Source of the DNA: a virus
Taxonomy: Duplodnaviria > Heunggongvirae > Uroviricota > Caudoviricetes
DNA length: 29,144 nucleotides
Virus record (IMG/VR): IMGVR_UViG_2737471841_000001
Coordinates: 1-29,144 of that record
Direction: 5' to 3' (one strand)
Made by a program: the position numbers and the translations under genes. Below are positions 6,054-29,144 of the stretch, piece after piece; the first letter of the stretch is position 1, and each line of letters starts with the position of its first letter. The notes under the pieces were generated by a model that was not told the DNA's origin, searched no databases, and was given only the letters and a program-made list of their open reading frames with translations.

Positions 6054-6410
6054 ACGATGGATAAATGCACTCGTTAAATAAAGCCCTGAGTTAATAGCTC
6101 GGGGCTTCTTGCGTTTTAAGCACGACCTTTCTGAAAGCGCATCAAACCAAATACCAGACAGACCAAAATAATCACCTTATCCGCTGTGGCTACGGTGCGG
6201 TGTGCTTTGCATAAAAGAAAACCAGCTCAATGGCTGGCTTCGTGAAAGCGGGTGGCAAGAGGTTGCGCTAACAACCTCATGCCGTTTTGCCCGTGCATAT
6301 CGGTCACGAACAAATCTGATTACTAAACACAGTAGCCTGGATTTGTTCTATCAGTAATCGACCTTATTCCTAATTAAATAGAGCAAATCCCCTCAATGAA
6401 GGGGTAGAGC

Positions 6411-18187: not shown

Positions 18188-18721
18188 ATGTTAAGTGAAA
18201 ACGCAAAAGATATCGAAGGATATGAAGGACTGTACGCCATCACTAATGATGGTAGAGTTTACTCGCATTCAAGAGTAAATTTGAGGGGACGTCTTATTAA
18301 GGGGAGGTGGCTGAAGCATAATCATAACGTAAATGGATATAAGTATGTGTGTTTATATAAGGATGGCGTAAAAAAGAACATACTAATACATAAGCTTGTT
18401 GCATCTCACTTTGTTGGTGGATTTGCTGAAGGGTTACAGGTTAACCATATAGATGGTGATAAATATAATAATAACTATCTAAATCTTGAATGGGTTACTC
18501 CATCAGGAAATATCTCACACTCATATGGATTGGAATCGCGAGGTAATGTTAAAGGAGAAAGGAATGGTAATTCTAAAATATCTAATGATGATGTCATAAA
18601 GATAAAAGAAATGGTTGCCAATGGATTTCCTCAGTGTGAAGTTGCTAAATTATTTGGAATTCACAATTCAAAGGTTAGTAGAATTGTAAATGGCAAGGCA
18701 TGGAGGCATGTGAATGGCTGA
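18188..18721 (+). CDS. Free-standing HNH homing endonuclease (paralog of 16216..16800)
   Basis: 177 aa; N-terminus [30 protein letters not shown] nearly identical to the first HNH protein; HKLVASHF ... [20 protein letters not shown]; C-terminal HTH; AT-rich. Confidence 0.85.
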
Positions 18722-24303: not shown

Positions 24304-24789
24304 TTATCTAATGTTGCTGCTACTGTTGCATGTTACCGTGTTTCCAAATCCTGAATTGCAGTTTGTATATGTGTCAACGCGTGTTGGGTAAGGTTGAGTT
24401 ATAACAGGCTGGCGCGCTTTTTGCTCGATCGCTTGCATTGTGTTTACAGCCTGATAATTCAATAAAGCCTGCTGGAATGCTTGGCTTTGTGCTATTTGTT
24501 GGGCTTGTTCTTGGCTTTGTAATTGAACATAAAGATTCTGAAGCTCAAGTCTTGCCTGTGCGTCACTTATCTTGCCTTCATCGACACCTTGCCCGAGCAT
24601 CTTTGCAGCAAGGACATACAGCTTAGGTGTTGGTGCTGATGCCATGCGTGAGTCGTTCTTCACACTGGCATCAAGGCAATTAGCCATATCGCTAAGCTTT
24701 TGATAGCGTTGTTCGCAACTTGCTTGATAGTCACTTACTTTTGCGCATCCAACCAGCAGAAGCGGGATAATTAACAGTGATTTTTTCAT
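24304..24789 (-). CDS. Secreted lipoprotein of unknown function (candidate lysogeny-expressed moron)
   Basis: 161 aa from ATG 24789 (AAGGAG 9 nt upstream); signal peptide with lipobox MKKSLLIIPLLLVGC; four further Cys; Gln-rich helical middle. Confidence 0.7.
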   Translation of the reverse strand: MKKSLLIIPLLLVGCAKVSDYQASCEQRYQKLSDMANCLDASVKNDSRMASAPTPKLYVLAAKMLGQGVDEGKISDAQARLELQNLYVQLQSQEQAQQIAQSQAFQQALLNYQAVNTMQAIEQKARQPVITQPYPTRVDTYTNCNSGFGNTVTCNSSSNIR

Positions 24790-24859: not shown

Positions 24860-25159
24860 CTATGTTTCCTTTTTATTATTGCTATACATGGTCTTAAGCG
24901 TTTCAAAAACCATTTTCTTAACCATATCAGATTGTTGTTCTGCCATACGCTCTGCATCGTCAATGTAAACTGATGCAGAGCTTTGTTTAGCCAATGATTC
25001 TTCAATCGCTGCAATTATCTCTGAGTTCAGCGACCTGTTATTCATCTTCGCGCGCTGTTTAATTTTCGCGTGGAGTTCATGCGGAAGTCTCAAGTGAAAC
25101 TGCGCCTCGTCGTATTTGCTGTACATCCTTGATGCCTCACCAGTTGGGTGGAATGGCAT
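24860..25159 (-). CDS. mnt: Mnt-like ribbon-helix-helix (Arc/MetJ family) repressor
   Basis: RLPHELHAKIKQRAKMNNRSLNSEIIAAIEESL ... DDAERMAEQQSDMVKKMVFETLK resembles P22 Mnt; start may be the internal ATG at 25126. Confidence 0.8.
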   Translation of the reverse strand: MPFHPTGEASRMYSKYDEAQFHLRLPHELHAKIKQRAKMNNRSLNSEIIAAIEESLAKQSSASVYIDDAERMAEQQSDMVKKMVFETLKTMYSNNKKET

Positions 25160-25247: not shown

Positions 25248-27305
25248 ATGTCAGATATCACCGCAAATGTTGTGGTAAGCATGCCTTCTCAACTCTTCAC
25301 TATGGCTCGTTCTTTTAAAGCGGTAGCCAATGGCGAAATTTATATCGGGAAAATTGACACTGACCCGGTAAATCCTGAAAACCGGATTCAGGTTTATGTA
25401 GAGAACGAAGACGGCTCTCACGTTCCTGTTTCGCAACCAATCATCATTAACGCTGCTGGTTACCCGGTATATAACGGACAGATTGCCAAGTTCGTAACTG
25501 TGCAAGGCCATTCTATGGCTGTTTATGATGCGTATGGTGCACAGCAATTCTATTTTCCTAATGTGCTGAAGTACGATCCTGATCAGTTAAGGCAGGAGCT
25601 GGCGGGGCCAAACGGCGTAGATCTGGTAAACGGAGCGGCAAAGCAGACTGATGTTAATAAGCTGAACATTCACACTAGTGGCTACGTCAATGTGCTTGAG
25701 TATATCCCTGAAAACCTGCATCAGTACCTTACAGACTTGGCTCAGTCACAAACGAACGCAGGGGACCTAATTTCCTATCTTAATGCAGCGTCAGCATACT
25801 GCGAAAAGAACCACAAAGACCTTGTATTTCCGTTCGGATATTACTTTGTATCAAACACCTTCATGTTACCTGCTGGGGTAAAGGTGATAGGTCTTGGCTA
25901 CCCGTACATCCTTGCTCTAACCCCATTTAACGCTTCAAATATTATTGTAAGTTGCGATAAAACAGGACAGCCAACTTATGATATGGATATGTTTCATATA
26001 AACGGTCCTGGCCCTAGCAACCTCGACATGGTGGGGTTGCGAGTCGGCGGATGTCGTAATAGCAAATTTTCAAGGATAATCGTTACCAGTTGCTTCTCTG
26101 CCGGGGTAGAGGTTTACCCAACAGTAGCAACATCAGGAGATGTTGAAAACCTACACCTTGACCATGTCTGGACCGTACTGTCTGGAGGGGTGCGCTTTAA
26201 AGCTAACGCCTCTATAGCTAGGGGCAATATCACGGATGCAACTGTATCAAACTGTCAATTAACGACTGGAGATGCAACCTTGTCCGGACCTCCAGCTATC
26301 ACTATTACAGGGGCGCCTGGCAGGCAGATATTCGGGATTGCTTTTAAACGGGTATTTACACAAACGACTGACCAGGACCATATAGTAGTAAATCCAAATG
26401 GTGGAAGCGTATTCCATAATACATTTAGTGATATAAGTGGTGAGTCATGGACTATTGCCGCAGGCGGTATTTCTGGCTCATTCGCTAAGAATGCGCTATA
26501 TGTACTCGATGGTGCATTTACCACCAATTCATTCCGCGACTTCTATAAACAGGGTTTGCCTGGCAACGGTATTACTTTAGGTGTTGGCTCATCTGGTAAT
26601 CTGTTTGACGGGCTTCGATTCATGGACAGAAATGTTGTTGGATATAACAACAAGTGGTTAATCATACCATCTGGAGCAAACTCAAACAGTTTTCACGCCT
26701 GCTACTTCGATGGTTGTTTTAATCGCGCCGATTCTGGATATGGTGGCGTAGCGGCTAATTATGTATTCAGAGCTTTTGACGGTAAGATTTCTGACTTGAG
26801 CGGTAGCACAAAATTTGACACACCGGAGATAAGAGACGTTTCTCCAGTTCTCATTAAGAGGTCAACGATATTCGCTATTAGTGGCAACCAATTAGTTAAC
26901 TATCCAGTAACGGGATGCGCCTTTGCAACGACTGCCGATGGCATTAGCGTTGCCGTCCCTGCTGGTAACACCCCCTACTTTCTTACCATACCTTTTACCC
27001 CCACTGCGGGATTCGCAGGTAAATTTATCGGACTTACTATCAAATATGTATGCGGGGCCATGAATGGTATGACCCTGTCGGCGGATATCTGCGGCGCAGG
27101 TTCCGGAGTAACAGATTTAACCACGGGTAAAGCAAATGTGTTTAGCATGTATGGCGCTTACAACTCAGATAACAAAACCGTCACATTAACATTTGGGGGG
27201 GACAGAACGGCGCAGGCTAACATGGCTTTACAAGATATTATAATCACCGAAGGTGCTAACATTCCTTACATACCAAACTTCCGAAAAATATACATTGAGA
27301 GTTAA
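25248..27305 (+). CDS. 9: Tailspike (P22 gp9-like head-binding N-terminus, divergent receptor-binding domain)
   Basis: ATG 25248 with GGAG 9 nt upstream; [11 protein letters not shown]...[21 protein letters not shown]...[13 protein letters not shown]...VLKYDPDQ matches the gp9 head-binding domain; remainder differs from P22 gp9. Confidence 0.9.
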
Positions 27306-27322
27306 CTATATAAACGTGATGT

Positions 27323-27345
27323 AGCCCACTCAGGTGGGCTTTTTG
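27323..27345 (+). terminator. Intrinsic terminator after tailspike
   Basis: AGCCCAC-TCAG-GTGGGCT stem-loop followed by TTTTTG, 18 nt after the tailspike stop. Confidence 0.65.
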
Positions 27346-27378
27346 CTGTACGCGCATTGATCTCCATCCGATATTGAT

Positions 27379-27398
27379 AATACTGTATGTGCATGCAG
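27379..27398 (+). promoter_or_regulatory. LexA (SOS) box
   Basis: TACTGTATGTGCATGCAGTA fits the TACTG-N10-CAGTA consensus; followed by GGAGG and start codons. Confidence 0.6.
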
Positions 27399-27420
27399 TA
27401 TCAATCGGAGGTGCATCATG

Positions 27421-27804
27421 GGATTCCCGAGTCCAGCATAAGACTACGTTGAACAACGCATATCGCTCGACAAGCGCATCATAACCAGGCCAGCGGCTAC
27501 GTACTTCATGCGAGCAGGTTCGACACACTACCGGGAAGGCATCATTAATGGAGCGCTACTCGTCGTTGATGCGTCACTTACGCCATGCGACGGCTCATTG
27601 CTGGTATGCAGAATGGAAAGTGAGCTGAGGATAAAGCGATATCGAACTCATCCAAAGCCCCACCTTGAGGATTTGCAAACAGGAAGGCGAGAAGAGATAC
27701 CTGCATACGATGACGGAACTAGCCCGGATGCGATATTTGGTGTTATCACTTACATCATCAACGATTCGCGTTCTGGTGAGTTTGGTGATTGTCCGGTGAC
27801 ATAG
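27421..27804 (+). pseudogene. UmuD'-like (S24 LexA-type) gene remnant, interrupted by an in-frame stop
   Basis: Frame 1 reads GFPSPA-stop-DYVEQRISLDKRIITRPAATYFMRAGSTHYREG...; GFPSPAADYVEQRI is the UmuD region just after its cleavage site. TAA at 27439-27441; the ASGDSM-equivalent reads AGSTHY. Confidence 0.55.
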
Positions 27805-27810
27805 GTGTCG

Positions 27811-28968
27811 TTATGCCACCATCCCATCAAGCCAGTCCGCCCACCATTGCATCATCTCCCTGCGCTTATCGAGATACTGAGCATGGTTGTAAATCCCACG
27901 CACAGATCCGCCGTTGGCATGTGCCAGTTGCACTTCAATAGCGTCAGCAGGCCATTCGTGCTCGTTCATAATTGTGCTGAATTCATGCCTGAATCCGTGA
28001 CCGCTTTCCAGACCCTCATAGCCGATTTGTTTGATCACAAGCAATACCGCGTTCTCGCAGATTGGCTTCTTCTTATCGTTGCGCCCGGCAAAAACAAACT
28101 CTGACACTGGTTTAGTGATTGAGCTTAGCGTAGTGAGAAGTTCAACTACCTGGTCTGACATAGGAACCACATGAATTTTGCGTCCCTTCATCACATTGGC
28201 GTCGATGGTGATAATCCTGTTTTCAAAATCGACGTTCTTCCATAGCATGGAACGAAGCTCTTTTGTTCTGAGGGCTGTGTAGCGTAAAACTTTGGTCGCA
28301 ATGAGCGATACGATACTTCCTGAAAATGTTGCCAGTGCTTTATTGAATGCCGGGATCTGGTCTGCAGGCAGAAACGGGAAGTTCTTCTTGCGGTATCCCT
28401 TCATGGCGTCAGCAAGGTCAGGTGCCGGGTTATATTTAGCCCTACCAGTGACAATAGCGTAACGGAAAACCTCGCCGCATCTTCTGCGGGCTTTATTTGC
28501 TCGCTCCATTGCACCGCGATCTTCAAATCTGCGGATTACTTCCAGCAGTTGCATCGGCTCAATATCCTGAATCTCAAGACCGCCGATGATGGGTAAAATG
28601 TCGTCATCAAACATTTTTGCAAGTTCATTTGCATAGCCTACTGACCAGACTTGCTTCTTGTGCTCGTACCATTCCTTGTAAATGGCGCTAAAGGAATTGT
28701 TGTTAGACGAAGCCTTTTTCGCCTTTACCGGATCGATGCCAACCGAGATCTCTTTCCTCGCAGTCCATGCTTTATCCCTTGCCTCTTGCAAAGTCATAAG
28801 CGGATATTTTCCGACGGTCAGGATTTTCTCCTTACCGTCAATCTTGTATCGAAGCTGCCATACCTTTTTCCCTGATACAGGGACATAAAGGTACAGGCCA
28901 TTACCATCGAGTAGGCGGTATGGTTTTTCTTTCGGCTTTGCTGCTTCAATCTGCTTAACGGTGAGCAT
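27811..28968 (-). CDS. int: Tyrosine integrase (IntS / P4-like family with N-terminal arm-binding domain)
   Basis: 385 aa from ATG 28968 (MLTVKQIEAAKPKEKPYRLLDGNGLYLYVPVSGKK...), closely resembling E. coli IntS as I recall it; an in-frame GTG at 29004 is an alternative start. Confidence 0.9.
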   Translation of the reverse strand: MLTVKQIEAAKPKEKPYRLLDGNGLYLYVPVSGKKVWQLRYKIDGKEKILTVGKYPLMTLQEARDKAWTARKEISVGIDPVKAKKASSNNNSFSAIYKEWYEHKKQVWSVGYANELAKMFDDDILPIIGGLEIQDIEPMQLLEVIRRFEDRGAMERANKARRRCGEVFRYAIVTGRAKYNPAPDLADAMKGYRKKNFPFLPADQIPAFNKALATFSGSIVSLIATKVLRYTALRTKELRSMLWKNVDFENRIITIDANVMKGRKIHVVPMSDQVVELLTTLSSITKPVSEFVFAGRNDKKKPICENAVLLVIKQIGYEGLESGHGFRHEFSTIMNEHEWPADAIEVQLAHANGGSVRGIYNHAQYLDKRREMMQWWADWLDGMVA

Positions 28969-29129
28969 GGGTAAAAATCCGGTGGGTAAAATTATTTTAT
29001 CCACTTTTTACCCGTCATGGAGTGCGGCTGTCAACGATCTGACGCGAACCATGACGAACCGTGAATATACGGAAGGCTTGATATTCAGGGGATTTTGCGG
29101 ACTGGTACGGATGGTAGCGAACTGATAAA

Positions 29130-29144
29130 TGGTGTCCCCTGCAG
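29130..29144 (-). tRNA. argW: 3' end of a tRNA-Arg gene (argW-type), truncated by the window edge; likely attachment-site core
   Basis: Reverse complement of the last 15 nt is CTGCAGGGGACACCA, the acceptor/T-arm 3' end with CCA as I recall argW; lies ~160 nt upstream of the integrase on the same strand. Confidence 0.55.

Follow-up and report, generated by a model that had tools for sequence, protein, structure and literature searches.

The right-hand end of the DNA analyzed here is best explained as the attL end of a P22-like (Lederbergvirus-type) prophage carrying the IntS/TorI module of KplE1, HK620, Sf6 and CUS-3, a reading to which we assign a probability of about 0.93. The window, i.e. 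the whole stretch of DNA under analysis, is 29,144 bp long and corresponds to the entire contig JUDJ01000035.1 of draft assembly GCA_000798295.1, as established by exact integrase protein look-up. The reading draws on sequence identities, colinearity with the attL of E. coli K-12, a complete set of cis motifs, and close relatives in which the entire tRNA and attR can be seen; no observation contradicts it. It is known that argW-integrating (pro)phages share attL, attR, the integrase IntS and the excisionase TorI, the latter being named HkaC in HK620 and gp18 in Sf6 (PMC3509656, PMC2951348). Judged from the sequence, every defining feature of this argW IntS-TorI module that can be checked within the window appears to be present. 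The relevant features are as follows.

29129..29144, minus strand: 16-nt att core CTGCAGGGGACACCAT, of which 29130..29144 is the 3' end of argW with CCA; also the end of the contig
28969..29128, minus strand: predicted attL P' arm including the int promoter PintS, from alignment to the K-12 KplE1 attL
29122-18, 29102-098, 29059-55, 29049-45 and 29039-35, minus strand: five TorI-type pentamers, from motif matching
29034..29029, minus strand: putative PintS -35 box TTGACA, colinear with the K-12 attL
29010..29005, minus strand: putative PintS -10 box TAAAAA, colinear with the K-12 attL
29013-06, 29002-28995, 28991-84 and 28976-69, minus strand: four TAAA-containing arm-type motifs between the -10 box and the int ATG
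27811..28968, minus strand: intS, a P4-type (Arm-DNA-bind_3) tyrosine integrase of 385 aa with an ATG start, from Pfam and sequence identity

Read on the minus strand, CTGCAGGGGACACCA at 29130..29144 is identical to nucleotides 61-75, including CCA, of the argW tRNA-Arg(CCU), the reference being the 75-nt tRNA-Arg(CCU) with anticodon CCT detected by ARAGORN in related loci. The original prediction, made from the letters of the window, that it ends in the last 15 nt of a tRNA-Arg including CCA is therefore exact. Both the 15-mer and the core have a single exact match in the 29,144-nt window, and no second copy was found there when up to 3 mismatches were allowed. The core can be aligned to the attP cores annotated for Sf6 and HK620 as well as to E. 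coli argW, and the last base of the window is the very base that is annotated in K-12 as the CPS-53 prophage boundary. The Sf6 and HK620 virion genomes contain the 16-nt core, and their homology to the window stops exactly at the window end, i.e. at the end of the core. The 15 nt are thus the phage-borne att core, which rebuilds argW, and the sequence supports assigning the window end to attL in the argW recombination module of KplE1, HK620, Sf6 and CUS-3. It should be noted that the same 15 nt are present in the free Sf6 and HK620 genomes and so do not by themselves prove integration. The same holds for the window as a whole, since all of its sequence is common to attL and attP.

A chance match to tRNA-Arg beside an integrase unrelated to any tRNA site would fit the failure of both ARAGORN and Rfam to detect any tRNA or other RNA gene in the window, a result that follows from the presence of just 15 nt of the tRNA. 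An exact 15-mer, however, is expected only about 5e-5 times in 2 x 29 kb by simple arithmetic. The match also falls at the exact position of the annotated Sf6, HK620 and K-12 CPS-53 cores and runs into a full tRNA in contigs with an identical junction. We rejected coincidence on the basis of the attP/attL core position and this continuation, and consider its probability negligible.

The gene next to the core encodes an integrase in which Arm-DNA-bind_3 (PF13356), Phage_int_M (PF22022) and Phage_integrase (PF00589) domains each score far above the Pfam cut-off. The protein is identical to E. coli K-12 IntS at 379 of 384 positions (99%) and to the phage Sf6 integrase (gp16) at 376 of 384 (98%); its central domain matches PDB 2kj8, described as 'prophage CPS-53 integrase', and it also matches PHROG 1, integrase. 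The tRNA fragment and int are both located on the minus strand and are separated by a 161-nt spacer (28969..29129), in agreement with the proposed arrangement of a tRNA end co-oriented with, and ~160 nt upstream of, an IntS-type integrase. A longer int open reading frame starting from a GTG at 29004 was rejected; the annotated start of every homologue corresponds to the ATG at 28968, and the GTG is further disfavored by its position inside the -10/arm-site region. Antisense open reading frames within int, for example 27805..28104 on the plus strand, were treated as spurious.

The attL region aligns with the K-12 KplE1 attL over 237 positions with 230 identities, 7 mismatches and no indel. Transcription of intS in KplE1 depends on a sigma-70 promoter (TTGACA / TAaAAa) inside attL, which is repressed by IntS as well as by TorI, with the TorI sites beside the -35 box and an IntS site overlapping the -10 box implicated in repression (Panis et al., PMC2951348). 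KplE1 excision was found to work only in a narrow range of IntS concentrations (Panis et al., PMC2951348). All corresponding motifs, namely PintS in the attL arm together with putative IntS arm-type and TorI sites, can be found in the window in the published layout. The five TorI-type pentamers read GTTCG, GTCCG, GTTCG, GTTCG and GATCG, the last abutting the -35 box, and show the published 2+3 block arrangement with 20-nt and 10-nt periodicities (PMC2951348). The transcription start of PintS is predicted, from colinearity, to be the T/A at 28999/28998. By analogy with the KplE1 experiments, the window attL would be expected to follow the same scheme in promoter use, autoregulation and recombination.

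Relatives of the window extend beyond its last base. Four other contigs found by exact protein look-up encode an identical integrase, and in these the 15 nt run upstream into a complete 75-nt tRNA-Arg with anticodon CCT, as detected by ARAGORN, followed by yfdC, mlaA, yfdF, fadL and fadIJ, which is the E. coli argW neighborhood. This synteny suggests Escherichia or Shigella as the origin of the source assembly. Two of the four contigs, L006 and L007, which come from other assemblies, match the last 245 nt of the window with 100% identity, after which they continue into full argW and yfdC; the 505 nt separating int from the tailspike gene are likewise 100% identical in both. When window positions 27300..29144, covering humD, int and argW, were used as a query, matches were obtained in 2160 of 5426 complete E. 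coli genomes, the first-ranked being the complete genome of E. coli 160-11H1 (L010). Its gene order is dsdC, core (attR), torI, early-left genes, repressor/cro/cII, replication, nin, Q, lysis, P22-type virion genes, tailspike, humD, intS, core in argW, and yfdC. Within this 49.5-kb stretch, CTGCAGGGGACACCAT occurs exactly twice and in direct orientation, once as attL in argW and once as attR beside torI and dsdC. K-12 has the same pair of cores, the attR copy being annotated as the pseudo-tRNA pawZ. The proposal that the tRNA-integrase junction marks a prophage boundary is thus upheld by the coinciding CPS-53 boundary base in K-12, by the continuation of L006 and L007 into argW, and by the duplicated core in L010.

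Between the replication genes and attL, the window and L010 are colinear, position 1 of the window aligning to L010 position 16829. As the window begins in replication genes, attR cannot be within it. By analogy with L010, about 11.3 kb of the prophage, including the excisionase gene, the immunity and early-left regions and attR, would be located on other contigs. Integration and completeness of the window's own element are likewise assigned only by this analogy. The absent ~11 kb, carrying torI and attR, is predicted to adjoin dsdC.

Taken together, these data suggest the following route to the observed arrangement. Within the phage attP, a 16-nt core would be identical to the 3' end of argW, the host gene for tRNA-Arg(CCU). 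Recombination between attP and the attB inside argW would be catalyzed by IntS, a tyrosine recombinase whose arm-binding domain is of the P4 type, and the phage-borne 15 nt would restore an intact tRNA gene after integration. In this type of module attP is located upstream of int, with the excisionase gene on its far side, and not downstream of int as in lambda. Because of this position between the two genes, int and the excisionase gene would come to lie at opposite prophage ends, and because attP is upstream of int, the integrase gene would be left at the late-gene end, beside the cargo slot and tailspike. TorI/HkaC, the cII-dependent integration promoter and the early-left operon would be carried to the other end, where attR is beside dsdC. 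In the lysogen, the sole promoter of int would be PintS, which is of the sigma-70 type and embedded in the P' arm of attL. With IntS arm-type sites overlapping the -10 box and TorI sites abutting the -35 box, int would be negatively autoregulated, and excision would be triggered by excisionase expressed from the far prophage end. The original prediction had placed the integration module at the late-gene end of the map; this holds for int, but the excisionase TorI/HkaC belongs to the opposite end, outside the contig.

The region between int and the late genes, together with the tailspike gene itself, contains the following features.

27418..27804, plus strand: humD (UmuD'-like) pseudogene between the tailspike gene and int, from the NCBIfam HumD model
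27381..27400, plus strand: LexA-box-like palindrome TACTGTATGTGCATGCAGTA (CTG-N10-CAG) upstream of humD
27323..27340, plus strand: terminator-like hairpin and T-run just past the tailspike stop codon, from a consensus scan
25248..27305, plus strand: P22-type tailspike of 685 aa, with the same start called in the source assembly

The humD sequence is recognized by the NCBIfam HumD equivalog with 149 bits over profile positions 31-128. It is interrupted by a premature TAA at codon 8 (27439..27441), where the intact 128-aa homologue of L010 has GCA, and an internal ATG at 27508 opens a 98-aa open reading frame. The nonsense allele is identical (100%) in L006 and L007, while the homologue at locus L001 is frameshifted. 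The palindrome TACTGTATGTGCATGCAGTA is unique in the window and conserved in homologues, and based on the known LexA consensus it represents a putative SOS box. The terminator-like hairpin is conserved in L006, L007, L010 and L001 and probably marks the end of the late operon. The tailspike gene had been described as the convergent neighbor of the integrase gene; the two are indeed convergent, but the humD pseudogene lies between them and they are not immediate neighbors. The argW site was also said to be a hotspot for serotype-converting phages, a view supported by its users Sf6 (oac), CPS-53 (yfdGHI, gtr-type), CUS-3 (neuO) and Kapi1. No oac, gtrABC or neuO-type gene was found in the slot between tailspike and int (27306..27810), which holds only the hairpin, the LexA-like site and the humD pseudogene. 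Judged by this slot beside int, which has no serotype-conversion gene, the element does not class as a serotype-converting phage.

The tailspike begins with a Pfam Head_binding domain (E = 4.9e-66), and PHROG tailspike families match only its N-terminal 130-200 residues. Among 50,697 phage records, matches are limited to the first ~350 nt of the gene, which encode the P22 head-binding domain; the best full-length matches among 5,426 complete E. coli genomes show 80-84% nucleotide identity. By sequence, the receptor-binding part is a rare allele. Other called genes match Pfam P22_gp7, Inj_translocase, Phage_P22_gp16, Phage_tail_NK and Phage_stabilise, and the P22-type virion module has 96-97% nucleotide matches to Lederbergvirus-like coliphages. 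The predicted combination of a Head_binding tailspike with gp7/gp20/gp16 ejection proteins places the element among the P22-like (Lederbergvirus-type) temperate podophages.

Two further open reading frames of the window deserve mention. An HNH endonuclease open reading frame (NUMOD4 and HNH_3; phrog_59) at 18188..18721 on the plus strand, located between the gp10-like and tail-needle genes of the late operon, has no counterpart at the same position in L010 and is probably a homing-endonuclease insertion. On the minus strand at 24304..24789, a 161-aa lipoprotein-like open reading frame (MKKSLLIIPLLLVGC...) matches phrog_6067, a family of unassigned function. It is found between the gp16 ejection-protein gene and a Mnt/Arc-type repressor gene (24860..25159, minus strand), the region in which sieA is found in P22, and may represent a superinfection-exclusion or other lysogen-expressed gene.

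The exact point at which the contig ends bears on the physical state of the element. Immediately before the core, argW has a C and attP-type sequence has a T, so that the contig stops at the last base that attL and attP share. A single prophage offers only the 16-bp attL/attR repeat, and an assembly should therefore not break there; with only attL and attR in the reads and k > 16, no branch would be expected at the core. If both junctions were present in the reads, a de Bruijn unitig would end precisely at the base where attP and attL diverge. The contig thus probably stops at the core because the reads held a second junction, namely attP from excised or tandem copies. One could go further and take the contig as wholly or partly free or replicating phage DNA in attP form, or as part of a tandem lysogen, with the 15 nt being the attP core. 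The core and int side are, after all, identical in virion genomes (Sf6, HK620) and in attL. Against this, the contig belongs to the draft assembly of a bacterium, two other assemblies have the identical junction integrated at argW, and other assembler artefacts could also end the contig at this base. We give this possibility slightly less than an even chance, and a purely free-phage origin of a contig from a bacterial assembly is unlikely. The presence of free or tandem DNA is, however, compatible with the preferred reading of an attL prophage end, as integrated and excised copies may occur together, and the two are not exclusive.

Conversely, the element might be a decayed cryptic remnant similar to CPS-53, in which int and attL survive and phage formation has been lost. 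K-12's own IntS element is such a remnant, humD is a pseudogene in the window, and the contig lacks ~11 kb, among which are the immunity region, the excisionase gene and attR. Yet 29 kb are colinear with a full P22-like prophage, and uninterrupted long open reading frames are found for the primase, Q, lysis, terminase, portal, scaffold and coat genes as well as for gp4/10/26, the ejection proteins and the tailspike. The cis elements of attL are intact as well, and a decayed remnant is accordingly improbable. A tentative extension of the prophage reading, which we regard as possible but would not favor, is that of a live, spontaneously induced Sf6/HK620-type phage with excised, replicating or tandem copies in the culture and possibly an uncharacterized O-antigen specificity. 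The latter idea derives from the rarity of the tailspike receptor-binding domain, as a result of which the specificity could be one not previously characterized.

This type of junction is already known and its module has been dissected biochemically and genetically; the original prediction is correct but ordinary. For the window, the outcome is a correct annotation, with the right-hand prophage boundary at base 29144 and argW as the integration site, and little beyond that. The locus is a textbook case of the arrangement found at most tRNA-associated integrase loci, characterized by an int promoter in attL, negative autoregulation, and an integrase gene uncoupled from the excisionase gene. More generally, a tRNA 3' fragment beside an integrase is carried by the phage and is not in itself proof of integration.

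The closest described system is KplE1 (CPS-53) of E. coli K-12, organized as argW-attL-PintS-intS ... torI-attR (Panis et al. 2007, 2010; PMC2951348, PMC3509656). It shares with the window the same core, -35 and -10 boxes, TorI pentamers, arm-type sites, boundary base and tRNA/int orientation. KplE1 is, however, a remnant of 10 kb that has gtr-type genes (yfdGHI) downstream in the map after intS, along with debris of tail-fibre genes, whereas the window element has a full P22-like late region, with the humD pseudogene and the tailspike gene following int. In the Lederbergviruses Sf6 and HK620, the annotated order is tailspike, cargo, convergent int, excision promoter, 16-nt attP core, hkaB/hkaC and integration promoter. 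Gene order and the 16-nt attP core agree with the window, and int is 96-97% identical at the nucleotide level. The cargo slot of Sf6 holds oac (O-antigen acetylase), in contrast to humD with a premature stop in the window element, and the receptor-binding parts of the Sf6 and HK620 tailspikes are unrelated to that of the window at the DNA level. Further, the records of Sf6 and HK620 represent virion genomes, which are in the attP form.

The CUS-3 prophage of E. coli K1 RS218, deposited from attL to attR, likewise has int first, then a cargo slot and a convergent tailspike gene, and its int is 96.6% identical in nucleotide sequence to that of the window. It differs in its cargo, neuO (encoding a phase-variable polysialic acid O-acetyltransferase), and in having an endosialidase as its tailspike. 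The 'attL core' annotated for CUS-3 (L004, CP000711) at 6327..6342 is TTGCAGGTTCGATTCC, the 16 nt immediately 5' of CTGCAGGGGACACCAT, and the public att-core annotations of CUS-3 and of Sf6/HK620 are thus inconsistent.

Similar to lambda and P22, the module combines a tyrosine integrase and a small excisionase acting on arm-type and core-type sites, and is placed between the tail genes and the early-left operon on the circular phage map. In lambda, int and xis remain at the same end of the prophage, and induction leads to their joint transcription from PL (PMC2951348). Unlike in lambda, an int gene of the window type has its own promoter inside attL and neighbors the tailspike gene.
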